Of a stretch of 64,000 nt of DNA, positions 2-46,895 are shown one piece after another (within the stretch, counting starts at the first letter, position 1; each line of letters opens with the position of its first letter). This DNA is from an uncultured Alphaproteobacteria bacterium (GTDB lineage: Bacteria; Pseudomonadota; Alphaproteobacteria; Rickettsiales; UBA998). A program made the translations under genes and the position numbers. The notes under the pieces are model-generated. The model did not search any database and was not told the DNA's origin. It saw only the letters and a program-made list of their open reading frames with translations. Location: assembly GCA_963803575.1 (NCBI GenBank), contig CAWDMW010000002.1, forward strand, positions 799,509 to 863,508, written 5' to 3'.

Positions 2-512
2 AAACTGGAAGGTGAGTTTGCAGAACTCCTGAAAACGGTACAGCCATCAAAAGGGCTGTTTAATGTGATGCAGGCGATGTTTAAAAAAGCATGGGGCATA
101 CAGCAGGATAAAGCTGATGCGCACGCCAAAACCTATGAGAAAGAGTTGGCAGAGGCAGAAAAAGAGATCAACACTCTCTTGGATCGCATTATGGATGCGT
201 CGAGCCCACGGGTGGTACAAGCCTATGAAAAGCGCATTGATGAGTTGGAAGACAAGAAGCTCATTCTTGCTGAAAAAGCCGCCACAAAAGCCGCATCACG
301 CTACAGCTTCGAGGAAATGTTTGAACTCTCCATGACCTTCCTCTCAAACCCACAGAAACTCTGGCATTCAAAGCGATTTGCGGTGCAAAGAATGGTGCTG
401 AAACTGGTCTTTTGCGGCAAGTTGCACCACCACAGAAATGAAGGCTATAGAACCCCCCAAACCACCAGCATTTATGCGGGGTTGAAGGGTTTTTTGGACG
501 AGAAAGTCAAGA
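2..512 (+). CDS. large serine recombinase family protein, C-terminal part (5' end outside the window; 3' end undefined)
   Basis: Frame 2 is open from the window edge. The translation (LEGEFAELLKTVQPSKGLFNVMQAMFKKAW...EINTLLDRIMDASSPRVVQAYEKRIDELEDKKLILAEK...HHRNEGYRTPQTT) looks like the coiled-coil C-terminal region of resolvase-type 'recombinase family' integrases. The frame then continues antisense through the tRNA-Leu gene (MVPPARLELARPKSTDFKSAASTIPPRG) with no stop codon. Confidence 0.6.
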
Positions 513-596
513 TGGTGCCCCCGGCCAGACTTGAACTGGCACGACCTAAGTCAACGGATTTTAAGTCCGCAGCGTCTACCATTCCGCCACGGGGGC
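513..596 (-). tRNA. tRNA-Leu (anticodon UAA)
   Basis: The reverse complement gcccccgtggcggaatggtagacgctgcggacttaaaatccgttgacttaggtcgtgccagttcaagtctggccgggggcacca folds by hand into a class II cloverleaf. It has a 7-bp acceptor stem, anticodon stem gcgga/tccgt with loop cttaaaa (TAA), a long variable arm, T arm gccag-ttcaagt-ctggc and an encoded CCA. Confidence 0.9.
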
Positions 597-844
597 AACA
601 GACGGGCATCATACGTATTTCTGGTTGTTTGACAAGTATTTTTATATACCACCCTTATAAGGGTATGGCATGGATACAAATAGTAATAGCCATGATTTTT
701 GTGACTATGGAACCTATGCCACAGATGACTCAGCAAATACTTACATTATGGCCCCGCAGAGTGCTTTTTTCATTGCAGTTTAGATTATTTCATGCGTATG
801 GTAGGAAACATACACGTAATTCAATATTATATAAGCATAAAGGA

Positions 845-1525
845 ATGGCAGTGAAAATAGCGACTACAATAATTGCACTAGGATGTCTTGCCGCGACCGC
901 AGCAAACGCAGCATATGAAGGAAATCAGTACAAACAGAATCGCTGGCCGCACTGGTACATTGGTGTACAAGGGTCTATCCCTTTTGTTGAAGAAACAGAC
1001 GTCAATGTGAATAGTTCCAACGCGGGTGATCTTGACTTTGATTCAGGCTATGGTGTGGGTGTGTCACTTGGATATACGCCACGCACACAGAATGCTATTT
1101 TGAACAATTCACGTTTTGAGCTGGAATATTATTATCGCCAAAATGAGCTGGATGAGTTTAATGCCGGTGGCGCGAGTACGCAGATTAGTGATGATATTGC
1201 GTCACAGACCTACATGATTAACTATTATTATGATTTCAAAACAGATTCCCGGATGACGCCTTATGTTGGTGCCGGTATCGGTGTGGCTGAAGTGGATCTA
1301 ACGATTCCGTCGCTTGCCGTTGATGATGAAGATAGCGTAATGGCTTACCAGTTGATGGCTGGTCTTGGCTGGCAACCGGAAGCATTGTTAAACACGGTGC
1401 TTCAGGTGGGTTATCGTTTTGTTGATACGACAGATAATCCTGAGTTCAGTGCGATTAACGGTCAGCGTCTGGATCATGAATATATGGTACATAGTATCGA
1501 AGCAGGTGCGCGTTTCCGTTTCTAA
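845..1525 (+). CDS. outer-membrane beta-barrel protein (OmpW/OMP_b-brl-like porin family)
   Basis: Internal ATG at 845 preceded by aagga. Signal peptide MAVKIATTIIALGCLAATAANA-AY. Alternating aromatic/Gly-rich beta-strand pattern with C-terminal ...GARFRF ending in Phe, as is typical of OMPs. Confidence 0.75.
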   Translation: MAVKIATTIIALGCLAATAANAAYEGNQYKQNRWPHWYIGVQGSIPFVEETDVNVNSSNAGDLDFDSGYGVGVSLGYTPRTQNAILNNSRFELEYYYRQNELDEFNAGGASTQISDDIASQTYMINYYYDFKTDSRMTPYVGAGIGVAEVDLTIPSLAVDDEDSVMAYQLMAGLGWQPEALLNTVLQVGYRFVDTTDNPEFSAINGQRLDHEYMVHSIEAGARFRF

Positions 1526-3188: not shown

Positions 3189-5056
3189 AACAGCTTATCT
3201 TTAGCTTAAACGACGTTGATTATCGTATTGCTGGCAAGCCACTCTTTACAGGTCTGTCCATGCAGATTCATGACCGTGACCGCTTATGCTTGGTGGGTAA
3301 GAATGGTGCGGGAAAAACCACATTAATGCGGATGATTATTGGAGATATAGAACCTGATAGTGGTGATTGTTTTCTTCAGCCCGGAACGCAGGTAGGGTAC
3401 CTTGCACAGAAGGTGGGGTATGATGACAGCCAAACAGTACGCGAATTTGTGCTGGCTGGATTGCAGACAAAAGAAGAACTGGAGATGCAGAGCTATCTGG
3501 TGGATATTGTCATTGCCCCGCTGGATTTAGATCCTGATATGCTGATGGGTTCGTTGTCCGGTGGACAGGTGCGACGAGCCGCACTGGCGCAGGCGCTTAT
3601 CACAGAGCCAGCTATTTTGTTGCTGGATGAGCCAACAAACCATTTGGACATACAAGCTATCGAGTGGCTGGAAGGGTATCTGGCATCTTATAATGGTGCG
3701 TTGCTGTGCGTCAGTCATGACCGGAAGTTTCTGGCAAATATTTCTCAGCGTGTATTATGGCTGGATCGCGGGGCGATGCGTGTCTGCCCGCATGGGTATG
3801 GAAAATTTGAAGCCTGGATGGAAAAGCAGGTAGAGCATGAAGCTCGAGAATTGCAAAATCTGCAAAAGCAGGTGCAGGCAGAGCAGGGATGGACGCAAGG
3901 TGGGGTTTCCGGGCGGCGCAAACGTAATGTAAGGCGTTTGAGAGAATTGGACTCATTGCGTGATAAACTGCAAAAAGACAAAGCGGCGTATCGGCAGCGA
4001 TCACAGAAACTGGATATGGATCCTATCGCCAGAACCAATAGCTCGAAGATTGTAGCAGAGTTCCGGCATGTTTCTAAAGCATTTGAACGTGACTCGCAGC
4101 GCACGACCATTGTGAAGGATTTTTCGCACCTGATTCTGAAAGGGGACGCTATTGGGATTTTGGGTAAGAATGGTGCGGGCAAGTCCAGTGTCATTAAGTT
4201 ACTTACCGGTGCGCTGGAGCCTGACAAAGGAAGTATCTTTCGTAGCAAACAGTTGGATGTATCCTACTTCGATCAGCAACGCAGTATGTTGAACCCGAGT
4301 AAAACACTATGGGAAACATTATGTCCGGACGGCGGCGATCATGTGGCCATTGGGCATGGCGAGCAGCAGAAATTCATTCATGTATGTGGTTATCTGAAAC
4401 GATTTCTGTTTGACCCGTCTCAGGCACATGACAAGGTAGGGATTCTTTCTGGTGGCCAACAGAACCGGCTGTTGCTTGCAAAAGTGTTGGCTCAGCCAGG
4501 CAACCTGTTGATTCTGGACGAACCAACAAATGATCTGGATATGGATACGCTGGATATGTTGCAGGATATGCTGTCTGATTATAAAGGGACACTGATTCTG
4601 GTTAGCCATGATCGTGACTTTCTGGATCGCTGCGTAACGGAGATACTAGCGTTTGAAGGGCAGGGAGTCGTACATTCGGTAATGGGTGGTTACAGCGACT
4701 ATCTGCGCCAGATGGAGCATCAGAAAGCCGTATCACGTGGTAAGGTGACTGTGCAACCTGCTAAGCGTACATTAGCAGATGATGTGATAAAGAAATCGTC
4801 GGAATCAGATTCGCAGGCACCACTCACCTACGGTGAGCGGCTAGAGTTGAAAGAATTGCCAGATGTGATTGCTACGTTGCAAACAGAACTGGATGCGATT
4901 CAGGAATCGTTAGACGATACACATATATTTCAGCAGGATCCGGATGGGTTTTCTGCGTTATTGCAACGCTATGATCGTGTGAAAGCAGATATAAACGTAA
5001 AAGAAGAACGGTGGCTGTTGCTCGAAGAACGTGGCCTATGTGAAAATCAGGCCTAA
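3185..5056 (+). CDS. uup: ABC-F family ATPase (Uup-like)
   Basis: Two ABC cassettes: GKNGAGKTT...LSGGQVRRAALAQAL...LLLDEPTNHLD and GKNGAGKSS...LSGGQQNRLLLAKVL...LILDEPTNDLD. No TM segments and a coiled-coil C-terminal tail. ATGA overlap with the cimA stop. Confidence 0.8.
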   Translation: MKQLIFSLNDVDYRIAGKPLFTGLSMQIHDRDRLCLVGKNGAGKTTLMRMIIGDIEPDSGDCFLQPGTQVGYLAQKVGYDDSQTVREFVLAGLQTKEELEMQSYLVDIVIAPLDLDPDMLMGSLSGGQVRRAALAQALITEPAILLLDEPTNHLDIQAIEWLEGYLASYNGALLCVSHDRKFLANISQRVLWLDRGAMRVCPHGYGKFEAWMEKQVEHEARELQNLQKQVQAEQGWTQGGVSGRRKRNVRRLRELDSLRDKLQKDKAAYRQRSQKLDMDPIARTNSSKIVAEFRHVSKAFERDSQRTTIVKDFSHLILKGDAIGILGKNGAGKSSVIKLLTGALEPDKGSIFRSKQLDVSYFDQQRSMLNPSKTLWETLCPDGGDHVAIGHGEQQKFIHVCGYLKRFLFDPSQAHDKVGILSGGQQNRLLLAKVLAQPGNLLILDEPTNDLDMDTLDMLQDMLSDYKGTLILVSHDRDFLDRCVTEILAFEGQGVVHSVMGGYSDYLRQMEHQKAVSRGKVTVQPAKRTLADDVIKKSSESDSQAPLTYGERLELKELPDVIATLQTELDAIQESLDDTHIFQQDPDGFSALLQRYDRVKADINVKEERWLLLEERGLCENQA

Positions 5057-5062
5057 CATACC

Positions 5063-5497
5063 TTAAGCCGCTTTAATGCCAAGCAAGGTATCCATCCTGT
5101 GAATCAGTGTCTTAGATGAAGAAATATCCTTAACCACATAATCCGTTGCTCCGCACATCATTGCCTTTTTGCGTACCTGCTTGTCATCTGTGCCGCTATA
5201 GACAAGTATGGGGGTGAACGGAGATTCTGCATGAATGGCTGCTACCGTTGCGCTGCCACGAATATCCAGCAAATTCAGGTCAAGAATGATAATATCATAT
5301 TTTCGCATATCCAAAGCATCCAAAGCATCCACCATGCGTGGAACAACGGTTACATGAAAAGGATTGCGGTGACTGGTATGAATCAGTGTTTCCATCAGGA
5401 ATGCATCACTATGATTATCTTCAACCAGCAAAACTGCGGGAAATGACAGTGACAATGGTTTGTTTAGCTGAGTTGAGAGGTGTGTTACCGGAGACAT
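5063..5497 (-). CDS. single-domain response regulator (REC only), last gene of the kinase/receiver array
   Basis: VLLVEDNHSDAF...YDIIILDLNLLDIRG...ILVYSGT...DYVVKD carries the acidic pocket, phospho-Asp, Thr/Ser and Lys of a receiver. There is no output domain. Confidence 0.85.
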   Translation of the reverse strand: MSPVTHLSTQLNKPLSLSFPAVLLVEDNHSDAFLMETLIHTSHRNPFHVTVVPRMVDALDALDMRKYDIIILDLNLLDIRGSATVAAIHAESPFTPILVYSGTDDKQVRKKAMMCGATDYVVKDISSSKTLIHRMDTLLGIKAA

Positions 5498-5595
5498 GAA
5501 AGTAATAATGCAATAAAAAGCTATTTAATAGATGTCTAGCATATCCCTCATACATTGATATTGCTCTAAGGCTTTACTAAAGAACGGTAAATATT

Positions 5596-6552
5596 CTAGC
5601 CAACTTGGCTATTCGGTTCGTTGTCACAATCAGAGATAATATAGCTGCTACCAACTTTTGATTTTGCCCGATACATTGCCTGATCCGCATGTTGTACAAC
5701 CACATCCCGTTTCGCATATTCCTGTGCCGTACAAAAGCGAATACCAATACTGATACCAATAGAGAAGCTTTTACCGCTTACAGGGAAGGGTTGCTTAAAG
5801 AGTTCAGTGATTTTTTGTGCTGCCATCTCTGCATCGTAAAGTGATGCCATGTTTTCCAATAAGATAGCAAACTCATCGCCGCCAAAGCGTGCAGCCGTAT
5901 CATAAGGGCGGATGCAGTCTTTTAGGCGCTTTGCTACCAGTTTGAGCAAACTGTCTCCTGCTGCATGACCATAGCGATCATTGATTTGTTTAAAGCCATC
6001 CAGATCAATAAAGAATACGGCAATATTACCACCTTGTCGCTTCATTTTTGCCAGTGACATATCAAGCCGACTCTCAAACAGCATCCGGTTGGCCAGCCCT
6101 GTCAACATGTCGTAATTAGCACGTGTAATAAGTACTCCTTCAAACTGTTTTCTTAAGATAGCAAACTGAATGGCACGCGATATACGGTGGCCGTCCAGAT
6201 CATCTTTAAATAGGTAATCCTGTGCGCCTTGCTCAATGGCGGCCAGTGCAATACTTTCATCTTTATGAGCAGTTAGGAAAATGATAGGGGATTTGGGTGC
6301 CATATTTTGAAGGCTATTCAGTCCGGTAAAGCCAACTACGTCAGGCAAAGAGCGATCAAGCAGAATGACATCAAAGTCGGATTCTGCTTCAGCAATTGCT
6401 GTAATGGCTGCGGATAGATGAATGGCACGGGTAATGGTATGTGATTCTGGCATCACATCGTACAAAGCGCGCTGAATCAGAATCGCGTCGCCTTTGGAAT
6501 CCTCAACTAATAGGATGTTTAGTGGATCACTGGAGGATGTTATGCGTAGCAT
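5596..6552 (-). CDS. response regulator-diguanylate cyclase (REC-GGDEF)
   Basis: N-terminal receiver (ILLVEDSKGDA...VILLDRSLPD...FLTAH...YLFKD). C-terminal GGDEF domain with an intact GGDEF motif (ARFGGDEFAILL) and an RxxD I-site five residues upstream (RPYD-TAARF-GGDEF). Confidence 0.9.
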   Translation of the reverse strand: MLRITSSSDPLNILLVEDSKGDAILIQRALYDVMPESHTITRAIHLSAAITAIAEAESDFDVILLDRSLPDVVGFTGLNSLQNMAPKSPIIFLTAHKDESIALAAIEQGAQDYLFKDDLDGHRISRAIQFAILRKQFEGVLITRANYDMLTGLANRMLFESRLDMSLAKMKRQGGNIAVFFIDLDGFKQINDRYGHAAGDSLLKLVAKRLKDCIRPYDTAARFGGDEFAILLENMASLYDAEMAAQKITELFKQPFPVSGKSFSIGISIGIRFCTAQEYAKRDVVVQHADQAMYRAKSKVGSSYIISDCDNEPNSQVG

Positions 6553-7255
6553 AGGCTTGTTCTTTGGCTAAGGTGAAATAAAAAATGGTGCCTTGAATGG
6601 TTTCATCATCTTCAACAGGAACGCACCAGATGTTTCCATGATGTTGCTGAACGATCTTTTTTGCAAGGGCTAATCCCATACCAATTCCGGATTGTTCATG
6701 GTAGCTATGAAGCCGTTGAAAAAGCCCGAAAATAAAGTCTTGTACCTGTGGTTCAATGCCAACGCCATTATCCTTTACTGAGCATTCCCAGTAGGCATCA
6801 CGATCTTCTATGTCAATATGAATGCAGGGGGTACGTTCCGGGTGCCGATAAGATAACGCATTGGTAAATAAAATAGTGAATAACGACTTTAACAAAGGTG
6901 CGCTTGCGTAAAGCTGTGGCAAGGGTTGTGAATACGTGATGGTGGCCTCGCTTGTGGCCAGATGATGGATGCAATGCTCTATGACTGACTGAGTATCCAC
7001 GGTGTCATAATGGTGAGCAACCGTGTTCAGGCGCGAATATTCCAGCAATGACTGCATCATATGCTGTAGTTTCTGGCCGTTTTCTATAATCATATCAAGA
7101 TATAGCTGGCTTCTCTCACTAATATGTTGTGCCTCGTCCTGCTGTAGCAGCTTGGAAAACTCAACCATTGCACGTACAGGTGCGCTCAAGTCGTGAGAAA
7201 CGCTATAGGCATAGTCTTTAAACTCCTGTAAGACATATTGGGATGAGCCAGACAT
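6527..7255 (-). CDS. sensorless histidine kinase core (DHp + CA only), HK3
   Basis: I moved the start to the internal ATG at 7255, 2 nt after the upstream stop. The longer ORF-track start would overlap the upstream gene. H-box SVSHDLSAPVRAM lies about 20 aa from the N-terminus. N-box FTNALSYR, G1 DNGVGI and G2 GIGMGLA are present. No PAS/GAF/TM input domain. Confidence 0.85.
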   Translation of the reverse strand: MSGSSQYVLQEFKDYAYSVSHDLSAPVRAMVEFSKLLQQDEAQHISERSQLYLDMIIENGQKLQHMMQSLLEYSRLNTVAHHYDTVDTQSVIEHCIHHLATSEATITYSQPLPQLYASAPLLKSLFTILFTNALSYRHPERTPCIHIDIEDRDAYWECSVKDNGVGIEPQVQDFIFGLFQRLHSYHEQSGIGMGLALAKKIVQQHHGNIWCVPVEDDETIQGTIFYFTLAKEQAYATHNILQ

Positions 7256-7257
7256 CG

Positions 7258-7755
7258 TTAGAAAGCGTGTGAAGGTGAAAACATCTGTGAGATACTGTGA
7301 TCGGGAAGCAGCATATATTGTAGCCAAAATCCATGCATTTGTGTTGCCAGATTTTGATAATCTGACAGTGAAGCTGGCTTTACCACGCAGGCATTCGCGT
7401 ATAGATCATAACTTCGTTTGACATCTTGGGGAGTAGAAGAACCTGACAGAATAATGACGGGTATTGACTTTAGTGATAAGCTGTTTTTGATGGTAGCCAA
7501 CACATCATGGCCGTCAATGCCGGAGAGTTTAAGGTCAAGCAAGATCAGGTCAGGTGTTTCAAGTACATTATGTTCACCCTGTTTTCTCAACATTTCAATC
7601 GCGAGTTCTCCTGAATCCGCAACAGTGAAATGCACGTCAATCGCATTATCAGCAAACGCACGTTTCAGGAGTAATGCATCACTAGTATTATCCTCTACAA
7701 GCAGTATATGCAGGGGTTTTTTGGATGAGAGGGAATGATATAGTGCATCTGTCAT
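7258..7755 (-). CDS. single-domain response regulator (Rcp1-like REC), REC-c
   Basis: Internal ATG at 7755 forms an ATGA overlap with the stop of the upstream kinase. ILLVEDNTSDALLLKRAF...LILLDLKLSGIDG...VIILSGS...ANACVVKP. Confidence 0.85.
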   Translation of the reverse strand: MTDALYHSLSSKKPLHILLVEDNTSDALLLKRAFADNAIDVHFTVADSGELAIEMLRKQGEHNVLETPDLILLDLKLSGIDGHDVLATIKNSLSLKSIPVIILSGSSTPQDVKRSYDLYANACVVKPASLSDYQNLATQMHGFWLQYMLLPDHSISQMFSPSHAF

Positions 7756-8513
7756 ACTGTATTTTTGCCATGAGAAGGTTGAGGAAGTGTTAAATAGAAG
7801 CTGCTTCCCATACCAAAAGTGGACTTTACGCTTAAACTGCCACCATGGAGCTTCGCTATACGATAACATATGGCCAGCCCCATTCCTGTGCCGGATATAT
7901 GTTCCCAGCTATGTAAGCGTCTGAATGGTAAAAAAATATGATCGGCGAACTCTGGGTTGATGCCAATACCGTTATCGGTACAGTAAATACACCAATATGT
8001 TGACTCTGGGGAGCTAACTAATTCAGCACCTAACGTAATGTTGAGCGCACCTGAACTCGCCCTGTATAAGATTGCGTTGGAAAGTAAATGGTAAAAGACC
8101 AATTGTAATTGTTGTGGGTTGCTTTCTATCATTGGCAATGAATCGCAAGTAATGATTGTATCGTCCGGGTACGCTGGCAGATGTGATGAAGATAGAATCG
8201 AATCGACTATCATCTTTGTATCAATAAGTACCTTGTGGGAAGCATGGTTTTCCAGAAGCAGATATTGCAAATATTCGTCATTCATTTTACGAATACGTTT
8301 GCCGGCATCGTGAATAATGGCCAGATATTCCTGTCCTTCCTCGTTTAAAGCTTCACCATAATCCTGCTGCAATATGTCACTAAACGCCATAATCATACGG
8401 GTTGCTTCCTGCATATCGTGTGACACCAGATAGGTATAATGTTCTAACAACCCTTTTGTGTCACTGGCTATTGCAGGAATGGTTCCTGGAACGTTATCTT
8501 GAGAAAGATTCAT
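7752..8513 (-). CDS. sensorless histidine kinase core (DHp + CA only), HK2
   Basis: H-box LVSHDMQEATRMI lies about 30 aa from the N-terminus. N-box LLSNAILYR, G1 DNGIGI, F IFLPF and G2 GTGMGLA are present. No input domain and no TM segment. The start is 6 nt after the upstream REC stop. Confidence 0.85.
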   Translation of the reverse strand: MNLSQDNVPGTIPAIASDTKGLLEHYTYLVSHDMQEATRMIMAFSDILQQDYGEALNEEGQEYLAIIHDAGKRIRKMNDEYLQYLLLENHASHKVLIDTKMIVDSILSSSHLPAYPDDTIITCDSLPMIESNPQQLQLVFYHLLSNAILYRASSGALNITLGAELVSSPESTYWCIYCTDNGIGINPEFADHIFLPFRRLHSWEHISGTGMGLAICYRIAKLHGGSLSVKSTFGMGSSFYLTLPQPSHGKNTV

Positions 8514-8519
8514 GATGTA

Positions 8520-8999
8520 TCAGCCAGGCAATGGGTATGCATGATGATTAATACGTTGTGGATGTATCGTGAATGCGGTATTTATGGCGTGTTGAAGGTC
8601 TTTGGACATCAACCATTGCTTATTTAGGTAGCAATGCACACCGTAAGCAATAGCGCTTTCCTGAATAAGCTCGTCACACATGCCTGTCACAAAAATGATG
8701 GGTGGAAGTGAGGCGTAGGTTGCTTTCAAAGTGTCAAGCAGTTGAAAGCCATCCCCGTCTCCCATAATAAAATCCATGATGATACATTGAGGCATATCTT
8801 GTGCAAAAACGTCCAGTGACGCCGCTATCGTGTGTGCCTCAATACAGCGGTAGTGTGAACCATAGGCAATACGTATCCATGATTGATACAGCAATTGATC
8901 GCTATGACTATCTTCAATAATCAGAATAGTTTTTCCTGTGTCTGAATTAGTGTCAGAATATGGTGGGTTCAGATGTTCTTCGATAGTGAGATGCTGCAT
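8520..8999 (-). CDS. single-domain response regulator, REC-b
   Basis: ILIIEDSHSDQ...CIIMDFIMGDGDG...IIFVTGM...YLNKQ are the receiver signature residues. No output domain. Confidence 0.8.
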   Translation of the reverse strand: MQHLTIEEHLNPPYSDTNSDTGKTILIIEDSHSDQLLYQSWIRIAYGSHYRCIEAHTIAASLDVFAQDMPQCIIMDFIMGDGDGFQLLDTLKATYASLPPIIFVTGMCDELIQESAIAYGVHCYLNKQWLMSKDLQHAINTAFTIHPQRINHHAYPLPG

Positions 9000-9084
9000 A
9001 AAAATGTAACCATAAACTGTTATGATAGGATCTTAACATAGTATAGTTAATAATTAACCTTGTTAATGTTTATAATTAGTTAAG

Positions 9085-9516
9085 TTAATAGATCATGTGT
9101 GTTGTATCAGAATTTAACATGTGCTGAATCAGCACCTGCATATTAACGGAAGAGGTTAAGTCCTGTTTGAGCGTAAACCGCATGGCTCTGCTTTCTCGTA
9201 CCTGATGCATAAGTTGGGAGTCTGCTACGCTGGATACAATGACAATAGGTAGGGGTTGCCCGCTATCCTGATATCTGGGAAGCTGGCTTAACATATGTAC
9301 CAACTGTATTCCTGTACGACCCGGCATATTATAGTCTACAAACGCGCAGTCAACATGGTGTGCACTATAAATGCTTATTGCTTCGTTAGAACTTTGTGCT
9401 GTCATGCAGTGGTATTTCCATTCACACTGGATGTTTTCAATTTGATCCTGAAGTAAAAACAAGTCACCAGGGTTGTCATCTACTAACAAAATTGTTTTAG
9501 TATTGCTTCCTATCAT
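9085..9516 (-). CDS. single-domain response regulator, REC-a
   Basis: ILLVDDNPGDLFLL...CAFVDYNMPGRTG...IVIVSSV...FTLKQD. Receiver only. Confidence 0.8.
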   Translation of the reverse strand: MIGSNTKTILLVDDNPGDLFLLQDQIENIQCEWKYHCMTAQSSNEAISIYSAHHVDCAFVDYNMPGRTGIQLVHMLSQLPRYQDSGQPLPIVIVSSVADSQLMHQVRESRAMRFTLKQDLTSSVNMQVLIQHMLNSDTTHMIY

Positions 9517-9570
9517 AGTTGTTTCATTATATGATATAAGTTGTTTAGCAATAATTAATGGAGATGCTAA

Positions 9571-11094
9571 TTAAGTCGGAGTTTTGGACAGGTTTTTGGA
9601 AATTGTGAAGTGAAATGTACTTCCTGATCCTTCTTCGGATTCTATCCATATCGTTCCCTGATGACGCAGGGCAATTTTTTTGCAGATGGCTAGCCCGATG
9701 CCATTGCCTATATATTCCGCGCGCGTATGAAGCCGTTTAAACACTTCAAATAAGGTATCTTTTTGATCCGCTGGAATACCGATACCGTTATCAGCGACAG
9801 CAAAATGCCAGCAATCTAGTAGTTCTTTACACGATACGGTAACAGTAGGGCGACGATTCTCAGGCTGATATTTTAAACCATTGGTTATTAAGTTCATGAA
9901 TAACTGATACATCTGAGTTTTGTTGCAATGGAGGGTGGGAAGCTCTGCGGCAGATATATGTGCATCTTTCTTTTGAATGGATGTAATCAGATCATCCTGG
10001 ATTTGATTAATGACCTGATTAAGATCGGCTTTCTGGAATGTGCTGATATCGTGATCTACGCTACAATATTTTAAGATACTGGCGATGAGTTCCTGTCCTC
10101 GTGAAGCGCCAGATTTAAGAAAGTGAAAATATTTTGCGGCTTTCTCATCGTTTATCAGATGCGTCTCTAAATGCTTTTCCAGCATTTCGCTAAAGCTTGC
10201 AATCATACGAAGCGGCTCTTGCAAATCATGCGAGCAAATATAGGCAAAGCGCATCAGTTCTTCGTTTGAATGCTGCAAGCGGGAAATAAGTGTTTCACGC
10301 TGCGTGACATCCTGCGATACTCCTAGAATAAATGGTTTGCCGTTCACATCTTCAAAGCGTACTTTCTCAGTAAATAACGTGCGTTTGGAGCCGTTTGGCA
10401 TGGTCAGTGTTTCCGTGGTTTCTGAATAGCCCTCTTTAAAGGCTATGCGATCCATTGCCAGAAACTCATTTGCTTCTGCTGGGTTATAACGCTCCAGTGT
10501 AGTATAGCCAATCACACGGTCTTGCTGTTCCTCGGGGTAATTATTGATGAATGCCTGATTAGCCTGTACGATGGTGAAATCTTCTGCTTTAACAAAAATA
10601 GAGACAGGGTTATAGTCCATAATAAGCTGTAGAAAGGACTGTGATTTTATTAGCTCTTCTTTAGTGCGATTAAGTTCCTCATGCTGCTCTTTTTCGCGTA
10701 TCACAATGTCAGTAACATCTTGAAAAATACCAAAGAGTTGTAGTATTTTTCCGTGGTGATCCTGAAGACACTTCCCTTTGGAATTGACATAACGCATTTC
10801 TCCGCAGGGGCGAATAATGCGCAGGTTAGTAAAGGAAAATCCTTCCCCTGTTTCAATAGCTTTCTGTACGTTATGCTTGACCACGTCCTGATCGTCAGGG
10901 TGGTAGAAAGTGATAGCTGACTCTGTTTCAGGATAATAATTAAAGGCGTTTACGCCGTGGATCAGGTATATCTCTGGTGACCATTCCAAAGTGTTCTTGG
11001 CAAGATCAAGGCGCCAATATCCCATATGTGCCAACTGGCCGGCCATTTCCAGATATTGGCTTTTTTGACATAATTCGAGATATAGAGAATCCAT
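9571..11094 (-). CDS. cytoplasmic PAS-PAS histidine kinase, HK1
   Basis: Two PAS-like modules (GYWRLDLAKNTLEWSPEIYLIHG...GIFQDVTD and NPVSIFVKAEDFTIVQANQAF...GVSQDVTQRE). H-box ICSHDLQEPLRMI, N-box ITNGLKY, G1 DNGIGI and G2 GNGIGLA are present. No TM segments. Confidence 0.9.
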   Translation of the reverse strand: MDSLYLELCQKSQYLEMAGQLAHMGYWRLDLAKNTLEWSPEIYLIHGVNAFNYYPETESAITFYHPDDQDVVKHNVQKAIETGEGFSFTNLRIIRPCGEMRYVNSKGKCLQDHHGKILQLFGIFQDVTDIVIREKEQHEELNRTKEELIKSQSFLQLIMDYNPVSIFVKAEDFTIVQANQAFINNYPEEQQDRVIGYTTLERYNPAEANEFLAMDRIAFKEGYSETTETLTMPNGSKRTLFTEKVRFEDVNGKPFILGVSQDVTQRETLISRLQHSNEELMRFAYICSHDLQEPLRMIASFSEMLEKHLETHLINDEKAAKYFHFLKSGASRGQELIASILKYCSVDHDISTFQKADLNQVINQIQDDLITSIQKKDAHISAAELPTLHCNKTQMYQLFMNLITNGLKYQPENRRPTVTVSCKELLDCWHFAVADNGIGIPADQKDTLFEVFKRLHTRAEYIGNGIGLAICKKIALRHQGTIWIESEEGSGSTFHFTISKNLSKTPT

Positions 11095-11212: not shown

Positions 11213-11602
11213 CTAGCGCTGTAGTGATGTTTCCTGAGCTGACTCCTTAACAGTTTCAGTCCAGTTTCCTATGACGGGTTTTGCTTGCGTTGGCTGAGTC
11301 ATTGCTGCCAATTCTGGATATTGCTCGTTAAGCGTGGCTGAAGCCTGTTGAAGTTCATCACGACTTATTGCTCCGCCTGCACCTAAGCCCTGAAGCTGTT
11401 GCATGACTAAGTCGGCATGTTCGTGATCGAAGCTGGCTGCAACAATAGCATTGTTTCCAGCTATGATATCACTAGCATTATCAGGAATTGAAGAATTGCC
11501 CATAGAGAAGCTGACTTTACCGTCATCAAACGTGATGGTTGTTACCGTCTTTCCCTGTTCTTCCAAGGCATTGACTGTATCCAGTACTTGTGTTGAATCC
11601 AT
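11213..11602 (-). CDS. hypothetical protein (129 aa)
   Basis: ORF with a good SD (ttAGGAGtagatcata-ATG), on the same strand and immediately upstream of HK1. No motif recognised. Confidence 0.55.
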   Translation of the reverse strand: MDSTQVLDTVNALEEQGKTVTTITFDDGKVSFSMGNSSIPDNASDIIAGNNAIVAASFDHEHADLVMQQLQGLGAGGAISRDELQQASATLNEQYPELAAMTQPTQAKPVIGNWTETVKESAQETSLQR

Positions 11603-16068: not shown

Positions 16069-17163
16069 GTGCATAAAACCATGCAACGACTACCTGAATT
16101 ACTGAAAGATGTTGGCTTTATGGATGCCAGCTATATTTTACTGCTTACTGTGATTATAGCGATCATTACAACATTGGTCATGAAGCGTGTCCATGCTGTG
16201 CAGGAAAATTCGCTGGCTATGCGTGTGTTGAAGCGGATGATTAGACCAGTGCTTTGTCTTATTCTTGTGGCAGGTGCTTCCATCAGTTTAAGCGTCATTG
16301 ATGGAAAACATGCTATAGTTCAGACAATCATGGAAATTGTACAGCATGGCTTGATGATAACAGCTATTGCGCTGGTGATCTGGCTGGTGATTGCCATCTT
16401 AGCGGGTATTAAAAGGCATCTATTATTCAAGTACGATATGTCGAAAGAGGATAATTTGCACGCGCGTAAAGTGCATACGCAGATTAATGTCTTTTACCGC
16501 ATTATTGCATTTTTTGTGACCATTATAGGGCTGTCATTCATACTGATGACCTTTGATGGTGTCAGCAATATTGGCACAAGTTTGCTGGCTTCTGCTGGTG
16601 TAACCGGAATTATTCTGGGCTTCGCCGCGCAAAAAACCTTAGGTACCGTATTTGCTGGTATTCAGATAGCTATTACACAACCGATTCGTATTGAAGATGC
16701 TGTCGTGGTAGAAGGTGAATGGGGCTGGATTGAAGATATTACGTTCACTTACGTGGTGATACGTATATGGGATTTGCGACGGTTGGTTGTGCCAATCACG
16801 TATTTTATCGAACAGCCATTCCAAAACTGGACGCGTAATTCCGCAGAGATTATTGGCTCGGTAGAGCTGTATCTGGATTTCTCTGTGCCTTTGGAGGAAT
16901 TGCGTGCGGAATTTGAGCGTGTTGTGCGTGAGTCCTCTCTATGGAATCGCAAAGTGCAGGTATTGCAAGTGATGGATGTCACGGAGAAAACACAGAAAAT
17001 TCGGTGTTTGATGACAGCAAAAGACTCGCCAACCACCTGGGATTTACGATGTCTGGTACGTGAAAAGTTAATTATCTGGCTGCAAACACACTATCCGGAA
17101 AGTTTGCCACAACATCGTGTTATGTATGCAGATGAAGCTGGCAAAATTCCAGCATCCAGTTAA
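16069..17163 (+). CDS. mechanosensitive ion channel (MscS family) protein
   Basis: Several N-terminal TM helices followed by GFAAQKTLGTVFAGIQIAITQPIRIEDAVVVEGEWGWIEDIT, the MscS pore-helix/beta-domain signature. The start is either GTG 16069 or ATG 16081. Confidence 0.8.
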   Translation: MHKTMQRLPELLKDVGFMDASYILLLTVIIAIITTLVMKRVHAVQENSLAMRVLKRMIRPVLCLILVAGASISLSVIDGKHAIVQTIMEIVQHGLMITAIALVIWLVIAILAGIKRHLLFKYDMSKEDNLHARKVHTQINVFYRIIAFFVTIIGLSFILMTFDGVSNIGTSLLASAGVTGIILGFAAQKTLGTVFAGIQIAITQPIRIEDAVVVEGEWGWIEDITFTYVVIRIWDLRRLVVPITYFIEQPFQNWTRNSAEIIGSVELYLDFSVPLEELRAEFERVVRESSLWNRKVQVLQVMDVTEKTQKIRCLMTAKDSPTTWDLRCLVREKLIIWLQTHYPESLPQHRVMYADEAGKIPASS

Positions 17164-17173
17164 TCAGGACGCT

Positions 17174-17590
17174 TTATGCAGCAGGCGGCTTATCATTATC
17201 TGCCATAGACTTTAGCAAATCGTAGAATTTACGGCGTAATTTTTCGTCACTGATGCTGTAATAAGCACGGACTAGCTCAAGTGTTTCGCGGCTTGAAATA
17301 CGGTCATGTTCAAAGTTACTGTCGTCTTCTGCCATGCCGCGCGAATACTCGGACATTGCTTCAACAGGTTTCTCGTAATCATCGAAGAAATAAGCAACAG
17401 ATACATTAAGGATTTTGCTAAAATCATAAATCCGACTAGAACCCATCCGGTTAACGCCCTTTTCATACTTTTGAATTTGTTGAAAGCTTACGCCAATAGC
17501 TTTACCGACAGCTTCCTGACTCATGCCCAGCATGATACGACGTTCTCTCAAACGTTTTCCTACATATATATCAACAGGATGTAATGCCAT
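17174..17590 (-). CDS. XRE-family helix-turn-helix transcriptional regulator
   Basis: VGKRLRERRIMLGMSQEAVGKAIGVSFQQIQKYEKGVNRMGSSRIYDFSKIL is a Cro/C1-type HTH. Confidence 0.8.
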   Translation of the reverse strand: MALHPVDIYVGKRLRERRIMLGMSQEAVGKAIGVSFQQIQKYEKGVNRMGSSRIYDFSKILNVSVAYFFDDYEKPVEAMSEYSRGMAEDDSNFEHDRISSRETLELVRAYYSISDEKLRRKFYDLLKSMADNDKPPAA

Positions 17591-21855: not shown

Positions 21856-24800
21856 CTACGTTACTTTATGCCATAAAGCAGATAAAGCGGCCTGAATATC
21901 ATCCACCGCCATCAGCAGGCATGGAATGAGCAGTAAGATAATAGGTGTAGCGAATAAAATACCTGTGGCCAGTGACACGACCATGGGAATCAGGAATTGC
22001 GCCTGTATGCTGGTTTCCAGCAACATAGGCAGGAGTCCTAGACAGGTACTTAATGTTGTTAGCAAAATAGGGCGGAAGCGACGACGAATAGCGGCAATGG
22101 CGCTGTCATAGGTGTTATACCCTTCGCGCTTTTGCTGATTCAGATAATCCACCAGAACCACACTATCATTAATCACCACACCTGAAAGCGCAACAATACC
22201 AAACATGGAAATAAAGGTTAAATCATGCCCAAGCAGGAAATGGCCAAGAATCGCGCCAAATACACCAAACGGAATGGCAATCATGATGATGAAAGGCTGT
22301 ACATAACTGCGTAATTGTGAACCAAGCAAAACAAAAATAATCAGTAGAGCAATGAGCATATTGTTCATCAGGCTTTGTAAATCTTCTGATTGTTCCCGAC
22401 TTTCGCCTTCATAACGATAATCCAACCCGGGATAACGCGTCTGTAATTGTGGCAAGACATCGCTGTTTAATATCTCCATAACCCGATTAGGCGTGGTTAC
22501 GGCATAATCGACATCACCGTTGACGGAAATAACGCGACGACCATCAACAGACTCAATAACGGAATATCCTTGTTGTTCGCGAATGGTGGCAATTTGTGAC
22601 AAAGGAACCTCTGATCCATCAGCCAGACGGATACGGGCATTTTGCAAGGATTCCAGACTGTCACGCTCGGCTTCAGGGTAGCGTACATAGACAATCACTT
22701 CAAAGCGTCCACGTTGAAAGCGTTGTGCTTCCAGTCCAAAGAAAGCGCCACGCAATTGTTGACCAAGTTGCAGGGGTGTCAAGCCAACGGCAAGTCCTTG
22801 CGCATTTAGCTCAAAAACATATTCGGTTTTGCCCGGCTCGTAACTGTCAGACACTTCCTTCGTGCCTTCAATAGCGGCGAGTTGTTGCTTTAACCATTCA
22901 GACGCTTCATTCAATGTTTCATCATTGCGGTGGGTGAGTTCGATAGTTATGTCAGGATTGTCGCCAATTAGTGAACTTTGCAGTTCTAGTTTCTCGATAT
23001 TAGGCAGATCAATAATACGTTTGCGTATAGCTGATTCAATGTCAGCTGCGGATACCTGACGTTCGCCAGATGGAACCAGTTTAACGATGAGCTGGCCAAC
23101 ATTACTACTGGCGGTATAACTGTTATTGCCGGGGCCAGCAGCGCCACTACCCGAGGTTTGCCCGATAGTCAAAGCAATGCTTTCAAACACCTTCTGGTCA
23201 TATTGAGTGTGCATGGTGTCTTTGACTGCCATCGTACTGCTTTCAATCGCCAGTAATGTCTCTTCGGTCGTTGAGAAGGGAGTGCCTTGCGGCATAGTGA
23301 CGCTGATGGTGACGCGATCTCCTTCTATTTGCGGGAAGAAAATAAAGCGCATAATACCGGATTGCATCAGGCTGGCAATGATAATTCCAATAGCAACAAA
23401 TACGGCAATCGTCACATACCGCCAGATGATGCAGCGATGGGCAAAAGGCACCAACCAGTGGTCAGTGAAGTGCTGCAGTCCACCAGAGAAGCGATCACGG
23501 ATACGTGCGACAATGCCACGGCTCCATTCCCCGGGTGTGCTAAGGTGTGCGGGTAAAATAAAATATGCCTCAATTAATGAAACAAACAAGATGGCAATAA
23601 CCACCATTGGAATAACCTGAATAATCTGGCCAAGTGTTCCTGTGCTTAAAATAAGCGGCGCGAAAGCGGCCATCGTGGTTGCAACACCAATAGTGACGGG
23701 GGCAATAATTGCTTTGACGCCTCGCAGTGCCGCAAAACGATCATTCGGTGCGTGCTTTTGGGCATCGTAAATGCTCTCACCCGTGACAATACCGTCATCA
23801 ACCACAATCCCAAGCACCACAATCAAGGCAAACAACGAAATCATGTTCAGACTCAGCCCCATAAAGTAGATAATCATTAATCCACCCAGAAATGAGATAG
23901 GTATGGCAGCGCTTGTCCAGAAAGCCAGCTTAAGATCAAGAAATAATAATAATATCAGAAATACCAGCATAAACCCTAGCAAGGCATTTTGCATCATCAG
24001 GCTCATACGATCCGTCAGGCTGCGGGTTTCATCCCGACTGATGGTAATGTGCAATCCTTTGGGCAAGGTGACTTGCTCAAGATACGTTTTGACTTTGTTG
24101 GCAATGGTAAGCGTATCATCTGACTCGCTACGTTTTACATCAATAAAAGCAGCACGTTCCCCATTATACTGACTGATAAGATGTGTATCGGTGAAGCCAT
24201 CGATAACGGTACCAATATCGCCTATAGTTAAAACAGAACCATCAGGCAAGGTACGCAACATGATGCTGGAAAATTCTTCGCCCGTATAACGCTTTTCCTG
24301 CACACGTAGCAAAATATCTCCCTGACGCGATTCAACCGTGCCAGCAGGAATATCGGCAGAAAACTGACGAATACGTTGCTGTACATCGCTTAAGCCTAGC
24401 CCATATTTTTGCAAGGCTTCTTCAGATATTTCAATGGATATTTGATAGTCACGTATGCCACGAGTGGCGGTAAGTGCGACACCATTTAGCTGGCGTATTT
24501 CATCTTCAATGGTTTCTGTCCAGTGTTTAATGGTACGTTCATCTGCATCCCCATGAATAGCCAGTGTCAGTACGTTGGGTGTGACACGTACTTTGCGAAT
24601 TAAAGGACGCTCTGCATCTTCCGGTGGGAAGTCGGCTAAGCTATTGACGGCTGTTTCTACATCATTATAGACATCATCTGCGTTGGCAAAGTCTTCCACT
24701 TCCACACTGATGGTGCCGGAACCTTCTGATGCCGTGGACGAAATCCGGTCTACCCCCTCAATGCCTACCAGTGCTTCTTCCACACGGTTGGTGACAGAGT

Positions 24801-25014
24801 CATTAATCTCGTAAGGGGTGGAGCCGGGATAGGCCACACTTACCACAATCAGGCGTGGGTCAATGGTTGGGAATGTCTCTGTTCGAATCGATGAGAGTGT
24901 AACAATGCCACCAATAATAAACAGCAGCATGATAATGTTGGCAGCCACATGGTTTTGAGCAAACCACGCAATCATACCACGAGGGGGATCATCTTCTGGA
25001 GTATGCTTTGTCAT
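21856..25014 (-). CDS. RND efflux transporter permease (AcrB/HAE family)
   Basis: 1052 aa with a 12-TM/two-large-loop layout. N-terminus IAWFAQNHVAANIIMLLFIIGG is typical of AcrB-type pumps. Confidence 0.9.
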   Translation of the reverse strand: MTKHTPEDDPPRGMIAWFAQNHVAANIIMLLFIIGGIVTLSSIRTETFPTIDPRLIVVSVAYPGSTPYEINDSVTNRVEEALVGIEGVDRISSTASEGSGTISVEVEDFANADDVYNDVETAVNSLADFPPEDAERPLIRKVRVTPNVLTLAIHGDADERTIKHWTETIEDEIRQLNGVALTATRGIRDYQISIEISEEALQKYGLGLSDVQQRIRQFSADIPAGTVESRQGDILLRVQEKRYTGEEFSSIMLRTLPDGSVLTIGDIGTVIDGFTDTHLISQYNGERAAFIDVKRSESDDTLTIANKVKTYLEQVTLPKGLHITISRDETRSLTDRMSLMMQNALLGFMLVFLILLLFLDLKLAFWTSAAIPISFLGGLMIIYFMGLSLNMISLFALIVVLGIVVDDGIVTGESIYDAQKHAPNDRFAALRGVKAIIAPVTIGVATTMAAFAPLILSTGTLGQIIQVIPMVVIAILFVSLIEAYFILPAHLSTPGEWSRGIVARIRDRFSGGLQHFTDHWLVPFAHRCIIWRYVTIAVFVAIGIIIASLMQSGIMRFIFFPQIEGDRVTISVTMPQGTPFSTTEETLLAIESSTMAVKDTMHTQYDQKVFESIALTIGQTSGSGAAGPGNNSYTASSNVGQLIVKLVPSGERQVSAADIESAIRKRIIDLPNIEKLELQSSLIGDNPDITIELTHRNDETLNEASEWLKQQLAAIEGTKEVSDSYEPGKTEYVFELNAQGLAVGLTPLQLGQQLRGAFFGLEAQRFQRGRFEVIVYVRYPEAERDSLESLQNARIRLADGSEVPLSQIATIREQQGYSVIESVDGRRVISVNGDVDYAVTTPNRVMEILNSDVLPQLQTRYPGLDYRYEGESREQSEDLQSLMNNMLIALLIIFVLLGSQLRSYVQPFIIMIAIPFGVFGAILGHFLLGHDLTFISMFGIVALSGVVINDSVVLVDYLNQQKREGYNTYDSAIAAIRRRFRPILLTTLSTCLGLLPMLLETSIQAQFLIPMVVSLATGILFATPIILLLIPCLLMAVDDIQAALSALWHKVT

Positions 25015-26180: not shown

Positions 26181-26201
26181 ATAATGTCTGTCACGTAGAT
26201 G

Positions 26202-27674: not shown

Positions 27675-27761
27675 GTATAAAGCACAGAACGTATAATAGA
27701 TATGGAAGAAACATGACAATCTGTTACACCGCTCTAGCGCGATAATCTTTATGTTACTCCT

Positions 27762-45983: not shown

Positions 45984-46895
45984 TTACGTGCGCAAATAAT
46001 CCAGGATTGTTAAGTTAATGATCTTAGCGGTGGTGCTAAACGCTGCTTGCAATTGCGTTTCATAATTTGCCAGCTCTGTAGAGACGGAAGCAATATCGGC
46101 TTGTTTTAACTCAGCGGTGAAATTTTCCAGCTGTGTTAGGCTCGCTTCATGCGCGTCCTGATGGTTCAGCATGGTGGTGGCATTCAATGACAAAGTATGT
46201 TGCAGGGTAATCATCTTGTTAGAGGAAGCAATCAGTAAATCCATGGTGCCGTCTCTCGTATCATCGTCACCTGGTGTGTTAATCAGCATATCCATGGCGC
46301 GCAAGGCTTCCTCAAATGCAGCTTCATCGGCATTGACTCCATAAGTAATCGTGTAGCCATTATCTGCTTTCACGGATTTGCGCACATTGTCACCCTGATA
46401 ATAATCCGTGTCTGCCGGATCGCCCAGCGTGAAGGGGGTATCATAATCCGCATCCGTAATGTCTACCGGTGGTGTGGTCGTGTCAGTACCTGAGAAAAGA
46501 TAGCGACCCTGATATTGCGTGTTTAATGCAGCAATCATATCATCATAGACCGCTTGTGCAGAGGCTACCAGCTCGGCATCTGTGAGCTGTTCATTACTGA
46601 TTGCACCACTAATGTTGGCCATCAGCAGATCAAGCTTTTCAATCATATGGCTGACTGTATCGTAATATACCTGCGTTTCTTCCTGTGACACGCGCAGATT
46701 ATCAATGTAGGACTGGGTACGGGTGACATCGCTTTCCAGCTTGATAATCATCTGGCTATCATCGGCAATGCCGCCCCAATTCACGGATTTCAGGCCGGTA
46801 CTGATCTGTTCATTACGTTTATTAATTTCCACCTGCAAACGCATATTTTGCTGAATCATGCTGGTGTTATGTTGGTATGTGGCTACGCGCATCAT
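45984..46895 (-). CDS. flgL: flagellar hook-associated protein 3
   Basis: Flagellin-like N-terminus MRVATYQHNTSMIQQNMRLQVEINKRNEQISTGLK and a conserved C-terminal helix. It follows flgK. Confidence 0.75.
   Translation of the reverse strand: MMRVATYQHNTSMIQQNMRLQVEINKRNEQISTGLKSVNWGGIADDSQMIIKLESDVTRTQSYIDNLRVSQEETQVYYDTVSHMIEKLDLLMANISGAISNEQLTDAELVASAQAVYDDMIAALNTQYQGRYLFSGTDTTTPPVDITDADYDTPFTLGDPADTDYYQGDNVRKSVKADNGYTITYGVNADEAAFEEALRAMDMLINTPGDDDTRDGTMDLLIASSNKMITLQHTLSLNATTMLNHQDAHEASLTQLENFTAELKQADIASVSTELANYETQLQAAFSTTAKIINLTILDYLRT

Follow-up and report, generated by a model that had tools for sequence, protein, structure and literature searches.

The 64,000-nucleotide stretch analyzed here (the window; positions 799,509 to 863,508 of contig CAWDMW010000002.1, assembly GCA_963803575.1, from an uncultured alphaproteobacterium of the Rickettsiales lineage UBA998) carries an array of eight intact minus-strand genes (5063-11094) encoding, in gene order, a histidine kinase (HK) with two PAS domains, two stand-alone receivers (REC), a bare kinase core, a third stand-alone receiver, a second bare kinase core, a diguanylate cyclase of REC-GGDEF type and a last stand-alone receiver; these are designated HK1, REC_A, REC_B, HK2, REC_C, HK3, REC-GGDEF and REC_E (507, 143, 159, 253, 165, 242, 318 and 144 aa, respectively). 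Judged by gene order and sequence identity, the array is a derived, lengthened version of a conserved two-kinase operon that is apparently uncharacterized (a limited literature search found no paper on it). Control of one kinase by another through a receiver is of a kind already known; what is new is the split form, that is, a free Rcp1-type receiver and a bare kinase core within a conserved operon ending in a Rec-GGDEF cyclase, as well as the three-kinase version present in this genome. The favored reading of the array is that the signal runs in series, with receivers gating the next kinase; it is held tentatively, with a likelihood that falls just short of even.

An initial annotation of this DNA, made from the sequence alone, had described the eight-gene layout with these same lengths, and open reading frame (ORF) calls together with Pfam annotation of all eight proteins agree with it exactly. 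HK1 comprises PAS_3 (residues 36-123), PAS_4 (163-267), HisKA and HATPase_c, while HK2 and HK3 comprise HisKA and HATPase_c and nothing else (HisKA scores of HK1 and HK2 are slightly under the Pfam cut-off, the H-box being evident by sequence). The two PAS domains of HK1 are therefore the only sensor domains in the array and serve three kinase cores, as the initial annotation had it, and its statement that neither a phytochrome nor a transmembrane sensor is present also holds: Pfam finds no GAF/PHY, DNA-binding or Hpt domain in the eight proteins, and none of them has a transmembrane segment (no 19-mer above Kyte-Doolittle 1.5). A phytochrome system was rejected because GAF/PHY domains were not found by Pfam. 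The phytochrome-type flavor noted for the kinases, and the Rcp1-like character noted for a receiver, are borne out by comparison with solved structures, where bacteriophytochrome kinase modules (E ~1e-21) and classical HisKA kinases (HK853) are among the matches of both HK2 and HK3, and RcpA (1k68, E 2.9e-25) and Rcp1 (1i3c, E 3.7e-24) among those of REC_C; HK2 and HK3 are classical HisKA cores, not HWE-type. Catalytic and phospho-acceptor residues are complete throughout. In a motif check HK1, HK2 and HK3 each show intact H, N, G1, F and G2 boxes, the five Response_reg domains score E 1e-13 to 1e-19 in Pfam, and equivalents of CheY D12/D13, D57, T87 (Thr or Ser) and K109 are kept in all five receivers upon alignment with CheY. 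Best solved-structure matches of the first two receivers are the RcsC receiver for REC_A (Pfam Response_reg E 2.9e-15) and the N-terminal receiver of the dual-sensor HK 6oap for REC_B.

The eight genes constitute one operon-like unit. Successive junctions in gene order measure +54, +85, +6, -4, +2, -26 and +98 nt; the HK2 stop and the REC_C start overlap as ATGA (-4 nt), the start of REC-GGDEF overlaps the end of HK3 by 26 nt, and REC_B/HK2 (+6 nt) and REC_C/HK3 (+2 nt) are separate ORFs in different frames, thus unfused. The short starts assigned to REC_C (7755) and HK3 (7255) agree with the N-termini of their orthologues. Only one minus-strand terminator-like site occurs within or beside the array (5050..5069), the total of such sites in the region being not above shuffled expectation, and the window contains no REC, HK or GGDEF ORF beyond the eight. 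Co-transcription of all eight genes is plausible. No obvious Shine-Dalgarno sequence lies in the 25 nt before any of the eight starts, and several of these starts rely on their overlapping the preceding gene or lying close against it.

The conserved operon to which the array is related was found on one strand in each of three contexts of HK3-family clusters (counts from the genome and metagenome locus scans, here and below, are lower bounds from an arbitrary sample). It encodes an HTH_3-REC protein (206 aa), a sensor HK that is either PAS-HK (376-387 aa) or MASE1-CHASE-PAS-HK (1195 aa), a REC (158 aa), a short HK (235-249 aa), a REC-GGDEF (316-329 aa) and two last RECs (152-154 and 168-169 aa), and the reading frames of the sensor kinase, receiver and short kinase overlap or nearly abut. 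Six of the eight window genes, REC_B to REC_E, are collinear with this operon (L086/L087, L088/L089/L093 and L090) at 38-62% identity: the receiver half of HTH_3-REC corresponds to REC_B (48-50%), the sensor HK to HK2 (38-41%, also matching HK1), the REC to REC_C (41-46%), the short HK to HK3 (45-50%), the cyclases to each other (60-62%), and the next REC to REC_E (Pfam E 4.5e-19), whose orthologues, 48% identical, hold the same place after REC-GGDEF in L086 and L090. The same-position gene is the reciprocal best match for all six genes in L086 and L090, and for positions 1-5 in L088, where the sixth gene is absent. Compared with the related operon, the window array has HTH_3 gone from REC_B, PAS gone from HK2 and the last receiver absent, and has the complete PAS-PAS kinase HK1 and REC_A added upstream. 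HK1 has orthologues in L085, L088, L094 and L095 (36-41% identity across ~395-505 aa); no orthologue of REC_A was found in any fetched locus, the best match being 31%. REC_B is 38-50% identical to residues ~73-204 of the HTH_3-REC proteins (L086, L088, L090, L093 and L095), with no HTH remnant in the 85-nt upstream gap or nearby, and no PAS remnant was found upstream of HK2. The initial annotation's remark that the array has no DNA-binding output is accordingly true of the window itself, but this is a derived state, REC_B being the receiver half of an HTH_3-REC protein. Recent tandem duplication was rejected as the origin of the array: the kinases are mutually 29-33% identical and the receivers 23-37%, and the order REC, HK, REC, HK core, REC-GGDEF, REC recurs elsewhere at 38-62% identity, so that the lineage-specific duplication envisaged earlier as an undoing of the serial reading does not apply.

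Related variants of the operon are present in L095, L085, L082 and L100. L095 has a REC, a membrane-PAS-PAS-HK (36% identical to HK1 over 505 aa), a REC_C-like receiver, a short HK and REC-GGDEF; L085 has an HK1 orthologue (41% over 494 aa), a REC_C-like receiver and a short HK; L100, from the metagenome scan, has HK, REC, short HK and REC-GGDEF; and a Rhizomicrobium metagenome-assembled genome (MAG) has a REC, a sensorless HK2-like core, a REC_C-like receiver, an HK3-like core and a REC-HK. Among the matches listed in the metagenome scan there are also relatives of 29-36% identity. Two simpler arrangements are found, namely that of Legionella lytica, where a membrane PAS-PAS-PAS kinase of the sensor class stands directly before a REC-GGDEF orthologue (58%), and that of L094, with a GAF-PAS-HK, a REC_C-like receiver and then REC-GGDEF, and no short kinase. 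Because such sensor HK / REC-GGDEF and sensor HK / REC / REC-GGDEF versions occur, the receiver and short kinase together look as if they had entered as one module between a sensor kinase and its cyclase. One further locus, L038 (a Phycisphaerales MAG), seemed a near-identical array in a crude hidden Markov model scan and was rejected after Pfam annotation, which revealed a mosaic of REC-GerE, a putative membrane (dCache-like) kinase, REC-Hpt, REC-HD and REC-GGDEF-Hpt.

The kinases of the array fall into two classes. A neighbor-joining tree of kinase cores groups HK1 and HK2 with the sensor kinases of other genomes, HK2 as a divergent long branch, and places HK3 in a second clade consisting solely of short kinases. 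Helix 1 of the dimerization and histidine-phosphotransfer (DHp) domain differs accordingly between the clades, reading HDMQEPIRM..(N/S)F in the sensor class and HDLSAPVRAM.EF in the short class, with M versus A at H+8 and N/S/A versus E at H+11, positions that we take to be specificity determinants in EnvZ and HK853. The H-box of HK1 (SHDLQEPLRM) is of the sensor type. HK2 shares 38-41% identity with the related operons' sensor kinases and with that of Legionella lytica, retains only 31 residues ahead of its His, and lacks the otherwise conserved H-box Pro (QEA, not QEP). These features of HK2 bear on the notion that the operon is partly decayed in a small genome, HK2 and REC_B being functionless remnants and the working pathway being only HK1 to REC_C or HK3 to REC-GGDEF. 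The long branch and lost Pro of HK2 fit such decay, as do its missing PAS, the ~70 residues by which the N-terminus of REC_B is short relative to the related operons, the size of the source contig (only 1.76 Mb) and the G+C content of the array, which is the lowest among 6-kb stretches of the window (42.2% vs 46.5% elsewhere, ~2.4 standard deviations under the mean) and could also reflect horizontal origin. However, neither the HK2 nor the REC_B ORF is interrupted, both start and stop properly, none of their catalytic or phospho-acceptor residues has been lost, and both the ATGA overlap of HK2/REC_C and the 6-nt gap of REC_B/HK2 are preserved; moreover, the Rhizomicrobium MAG also has a sensorless HK2-like core at this place, so that a sensorless kinase in the HK2 position is not unique to this genome. 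Decay is therefore considered very unlikely.

HK3 belongs to a family of ~80 clusters (37-50% identity), all of 232-252 aa and comprising the kinase core only, with the H-box SHDL(S/G)APVRAMVEFS; that of HK3 itself is SHDLSAPVRAMVEFS. An alignment of 13 family members shows no variation in the H, N, G1 and G2 residues, the F box is also invariant in homologues 41-47% identical to HK3, and DHp helix 1 is almost invariant. Because only ~20 residues precede the His of HK3 and the family is uniformly short, HK3 is regarded as a kinase without input in cis. It directly follows the Rcp1-like receiver REC_C and directly precedes REC-GGDEF, and the same holds on its upstream side elsewhere: in six of six HK3-type contexts the gene immediately before that of the short kinase codes for an Rcp1-like receiver, overlapping the kinase gene or lying 4-30 nt from it, and orthologues of REC_C (40-46% identity) are directly upstream of each HK3-type kinase examined. 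Since it is always encoded just before the HK3-type kinase, this upstream receiver is the sole conserved candidate for its input. A connection between receivers and sensorless cores is also seen in the wider kinase family, where 43 of the 120 best HK2 homologues are REC-HK fusions of ~400 aa (domain order checked in 5). One of these, P0003, is a fusion of a REC_B-like receiver, for which REC_B is the best receiver match, to an HK2-like core. Two independent scans each showed the pattern sensor HK / stand-alone REC / REC-HK, at 15 or more loci out of 80.

These associations are difficult to accommodate if the array consists of three ordinary two-component pairs, parallel or branched, that merely share an operon (HK1 with REC_A/REC_B, HK2 with REC_C, HK3 with REC-GGDEF/REC_E), no receiver controlling a kinase, the sensorless kinases being constitutive or controlled from outside by a metabolite, c-di-GMP feedback or a partner protein, and the surplus receivers acting as phosphate sinks. 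Such pairing would explain neither why an input-less kinase family always comes after an Rcp1-type receiver and a sensor kinase, often with overlapping frames (6/6), nor why fused REC-HK forms dominate the wider kinase family, and two constitutive kinases driving the cyclase would leave the PAS sensor irrelevant to output. Each kinase does have a receiver gene just downstream, and in the Cph1-Rcp1 paradigm the receiver encoded just downstream is the kinase's substrate; the plain sensor HK / REC-GGDEF and sensor HK / REC / REC-GGDEF versions of the operon likewise speak for direct pairing, and BphP1 signaling is branched, with AgR a side branch (PMC3899027). On balance, parallel pairs are judged unlikely.

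The cyclase of the array matches Pfam GGDEF (E 3.7e-47) and REC (E 2.1e-16), and has the GGDEF active-site motif with an RxxD inhibitory site (I-site; RPYD) upstream of it. It aligns over its full length (residues 13-306) with the Rec-GGDEF structures 6zxb, 6zxc and 6zxm, similarity being only ~1e-30, and the NCBIfam DgcR model gives 9e-43 and 146 bits, far under the 500-bit cut-off. These structures are presumably those of Leptospira DgcR, an enzyme that we take to be activated by receiver phosphorylation and dimer rearrangement. Like the Rec-GGDEF cyclases DgcR, PleD and WspR, the window enzyme has a receiver followed by GGDEF with intact active site and I-site; it differs from PleD in having one receiver, not two, and the kinase chain upstream of it is unlike those of all three. 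Orthologues of REC-GGDEF are 52-63% identical, the nearest being from a MAG named 'Rickettsiales bacterium', and named sources comprise 'Rickettsiales bacterium' and 'Alphaproteobacteria bacterium' MAGs and several Legionella species. Of 119 clusters of these orthologues, 31 pair with an HK3-family cluster by equal lengths of their longest contigs, which suggests that REC-GGDEF and HK3-family genes are often co-located; co-location was confirmed directly in two matched pairs, and the same adjacency is present in L088/L093. Helix 1 of the cyclase receiver differs between these linked orthologues and those of Legionella, position 15 being K/R in 26 of 31 HK3-linked orthologues and in none of the 7 from Legionella, and position 22 being E/K/Q as opposed to S. 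The contrasts fit a change of partner kinase by the cyclase, out of the sensor class and into the HK3 class, phylogeny being a confounder of the K/R signal. No co-variation signal was detected between DHp helix 1 of the HK3 family and helix 1 of REC-GGDEF in the 31 contig-matched pairs, both being almost invariant.

Signal flow in series is the best reading of this evidence, the sequences being compatible with either allosteric gating or passage of phosphate at the receiver-to-kinase steps. In the gating form of the serial scheme, HK1 would autophosphorylate and then phosphorylate REC_A and/or REC_B; phospho-REC_B would set the autokinase/phosphatase balance of HK2, which would phosphorylate the Rcp1-like REC_C; phospho-REC_C would in turn set the activity of HK3; and HK3 would phosphorylate two receivers, that of REC-GGDEF, thereby activating c-di-GMP synthesis, and REC_E, a second output or phosphate sink. 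Phosphorylation of the cyclase receiver would be expected to activate by dimer rearrangement. The phosphotransfer arrows, the sign of the receiver-to-kinase steps and the choice of gating over relay are what we infer, a slight tilt toward gating being given by the invariance of the ATP-binding residues in the HK3 family.

Several observations weigh against serial gating. Partner assignments come from gene order, homology and precedent, the pairs having no link by co-variation, and fusions joining an Rcp1-type receiver to an HK3-type core were looked for and not found, the receiver of the one fused homologue, P0220, being generic. The promoter scan of the array region is at chance level (19 sites vs 19.5 expected) and thus uninformative on internal promoters. 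REC_B may be a leftover output or a sink and not the input of HK2, because its counterpart in the close relatives is an HTH transcription factor whose gene lies upstream of that for the sensor kinase. At the output end, the kinase directly adjacent to the REC-GGDEF orthologue in Legionella belongs with HK2 and the sensor kinases and not with HK3, and a sensor-class kinase may for this reason still serve the cyclase directly; L094 is without an HK3-type gene yet bears the 'HK3-linked' signature in helix 1 of its REC-GGDEF, and the K/R contrast is weakened as evidence of wiring by its confounding with phylogeny. Finally, PhyK demonstrates that conserved ATP-binding motifs are no proof of autokinase function (PMC5964349).

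The last point also underlies the alternative of a long phosphorelay, in which the phosphate itself would travel from HK1~P through REC_A/REC_B to His32 of HK2, REC_C, His21 of HK3 and finally REC-GGDEF and REC_E, HK2 and HK3 serving as histidine phosphotransferases like Spo0B, ChpT and PhyK/LovK and not as ATP-driven kinases. The gene order HK2, REC_C, HK3, REC-GGDEF (kinase, stand-alone receiver, kinase-like protein, output regulator) is indeed the order of a His-Asp-His-Asp relay; HK2 and HK3 are sensorless, with a short stub before the His; and the near-invariance of DHp helix 1 in the HK3 family is as expected for a surface that docks two conserved receivers. The N, G1, F and G2 boxes, on the other hand, are invariant in HK3 homologues and intact in HK2; the dedicated phosphotransferases Spo0B and ChpT have lost their ATP-binding boxes. 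Precedents from other systems can be cited on both sides. MrrA~P gives its phosphate to PhyK and LovK, and PhyK mutants in the G1/G2 boxes still work, so that a conserved catalytic and ATP-binding (CA) domain is compatible with a relay role (PMC5964349); however, the MrrA-type receivers are FATGUY receivers and PhyK/LovK are HisKA2/HWE proteins, where REC_C is Rcp1-type and HK3 is classical HisKA, and ExsG passed no phosphate between its own receiver and its own His (PMC3899027). A relay through HK2 and HK3 is regarded as somewhat unlikely.

Kinase-to-kinase signaling through receivers has been described in three systems that resemble the array in part. BphP1 phosphorylates AgR, an Rcp1-like stand-alone receiver, and the receiver of ExsG, which phosphorylates the receiver ExsF, and the phospho-receiver of ExsG inhibits the ExsG autokinase (PMC3899027). 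This BphP1-AgR-ExsG-ExsF system (Rhizobium NT-26 / Agrobacterium) is similar to the array in being a branched kinase-receiver-kinase-receiver chain encoded in one cluster, with a sensorless second kinase; it differs in that ExsG is a receiver fused to a kinase and an HWE-type hexamer, whereas the window has separate genes and HisKA cores, and in that input is by a bilin photoreceptor and the pathway has two tiers and no cyclase output, whereas the window has two PAS domains as input and three kinases. In Rhodospirillum centenum, CheS3 has a receiver that CheA3 phosphorylates, and CheY3 obtains its phosphate solely from CheS3~P (PMC3868531), again a kinase acting on the receiver of a second kinase that acts on a final single-domain receiver; here the first kinase is a CheA, the second a fused REC-HK and the output cyst formation, and the system is unrelated to the array in sequence or operon. 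The Caulobacter crescentus MrrA-PhyK/LovK system has a free receiver that signals in trans to kinase-fold proteins with conserved CA domains; its genes are dispersed, unlike the single operon of the window, phosphate donation and not gating has been shown, and the output is the PhyR-NepR-SigT partner switch (PMC5964349).

Other known systems share single elements with the array. Cph1-Rcp1 and CphA-RcpA have the SHDLQEPL-like H-box, the receiver family of REC_C, and a kinase gene directly followed by the receiver gene, but also a bilin-binding PAS-GAF-PHY module, whereas the array has no GAF/PHY; both are single pairs with, to our knowledge, no downstream kinase. DivK controls DivJ, PleC and DivL allosterically in trans, Spo0F to Spo0B to Spo0A are relay steps, RedCDEF is a four-component set of kinases and receivers, and DivL and Spo0B are catalytically degenerate; the sequences and layouts of the DivK, Spo0 and RedCDEF systems are unrelated to the array, and none of them is known to combine three kinases and five receivers in one operon ending in a cyclase. 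HmrABCX, a lead from the literature, proved unrelated, and a search of the literature on lpg0230, 8F71 and Rcp1 targets yielded nothing useful. In light of these comparisons the central proposal of the initial annotation, that a receiver switches on the next sensorless kinase, stands in part: that a receiver feeds the next kinase is supported indirectly by the six of six contexts, the 43 of 120 fusions and the ExsG, CheS3 and MrrA-PhyK precedents, but switching on cannot be assumed when the phospho-receiver of ExsG inhibits. The amplification likened there to a mitogen-activated protein kinase (MAPK) cascade finds no support here, and a stoichiometric phosphorelay through the kinase histidines fits equally well (PhyK). 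Where that annotation knew of no characterized system with exactly this layout, the kind of system does have precedents, and the core operon is widespread.

A broader proposal, which must be called doubtful, is that the HK3-type proteins of ~240 aa are a widespread class of receiver-gated kinases whose sole input is the co-encoded Rcp1-type receiver acting in trans. If this were true, the operons would be ATP-consuming kinase cascades of two tiers in most genomes and of three in the window, where loss of the PAS domain from a sensor kinase would have given rise to a second sensorless kinase. Phytochrome response regulators of the Rcp1 type, for which we know of no target, would gain a defined class of target, and the locus in any case provides a testable hypothesis on what Rcp1-type stand-alone receivers act upon. 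Teaching on two-component signaling usually has a single kinase pass phosphate stoichiometrically to a single regulator. Chains in which a kinase controls a kinase are few among the cases studied, and in nearly all of these the second kinase carries the receiver as a fusion. Here and in the related loci the sensor kinase, free receiver, bare kinase core and cyclase are genetically separable, so that the receiver-to-kinase step can be tested with purified single-domain proteins; the three-kinase form permits gating to be tested against relay at two successive steps. The operon may control c-di-GMP-dependent lifestyle switches in host-associated bacteria, because it recurs in Legionella relatives and in small-genome MAGs labeled Rickettsiales or Alphaproteobacteria.

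Features of the array on the minus strand of the window, in gene order
Feature	Position	Strand	Description
HK1	9571..11094	-	507 aa soluble PAS_3-PAS_4-HisKA-HATPase_c histidine kinase, His289
REC_A	9085..9516	-	143 aa stand-alone receiver, phospho-acceptor pocket intact
REC_B	8520..8999	-	159 aa stand-alone receiver; orthologue of receiver half of HTH_3-REC proteins
HK2	7752..8513	-	253 aa sensorless HisKA-HATPase_c core, His32
REC_C	7258..7755	-	165 aa Rcp1/RcpA-type stand-alone receiver with C-terminal FW extension, between HK2 and HK3
HK3	6527..7255	-	242 aa sensorless kinase core, His21
REC-GGDEF diguanylate cyclase	5596..6552	-	318 aa, one receiver; GGDEF at residue 224
REC_E	5063..5497	-	144 aa stand-alone receiver, final gene of array
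Terminator-like hairpin with T-rich tail	5050..5069	-	At 3' end of REC_E; consensus match only

Some further observations were made in the related loci. The operon adjoins genes for a phage-type integrase, HTH_17 and, in L086, Prim-Pol/VapE at L086 830-5196 and L095 1459-5401, which suggests that it travels on mobile islands; REC-GGDEF orthologues are common to Legionella and to Rickettsiales- or Alphaproteobacteria-labeled MAGs. A DUF5020 protein (248 aa) is encoded between HTH_3-REC and the MASE1-CHASE-PAS kinase in L088 (5217-5963) and L093 (4390-5136), which are of one lineage. L081 (1583-3380) encodes a CHASE8-HAMP-PAS_3 protein without a kinase domain, followed 35 nt on by a 233-aa kinase core and a receiver, and is either a naturally split sensor kinase or an assembly frameshift. 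A second, unrelated sensorless kinase of 245 aa lies beside a REC-HK-REC hybrid in L095 (18165-18902, minus strand), and sensorless cores may be common in these small genomes.

Around the array itself, a 129-aa ORF (11213-11602, minus strand) lies 118 nt upstream of HK1 on the same strand; it has no Pfam or NCBIfam family match and no homologue in any fetched locus, may either open the transcription unit or be spurious, and was left out of the system. An XRE/HTH_3-like stand-alone protein of 138 aa (17174-17590, minus strand), ~6 kb from the array, resembles the HTH portion of the related operons' HTH_3-REC proteins weakly (E 0.003), and is probably a regulator unrelated to them. Genes for the flagellar hook-associated protein FlgK and hook protein FlgE lie at 46918-48663 and 49052-50734 (minus strand), and the organism is probably flagellated; the link to flagellar genes raised in the initial annotation is pure speculation and finds no support here, these genes being ~36 kb from the array. 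Two ORFs had no NCBIfam match at E 1e-10 (one library searched), namely one of 486 aa (65-1525, plus strand) and one of 364 aa (16069-17163, plus strand), the latter a multi-pass membrane protein in appearance as judged by eye, and two others had no Pfam match at E 1e-8 (likewise one library), of 303 aa (45984-46895, minus strand) and 352 aa (55286-56344, minus strand). The window also contains a complete, ordinary-looking resistance-nodulation-division (RND) efflux operon with outer-membrane factor, adaptor and permease (21856-27719, minus strand).

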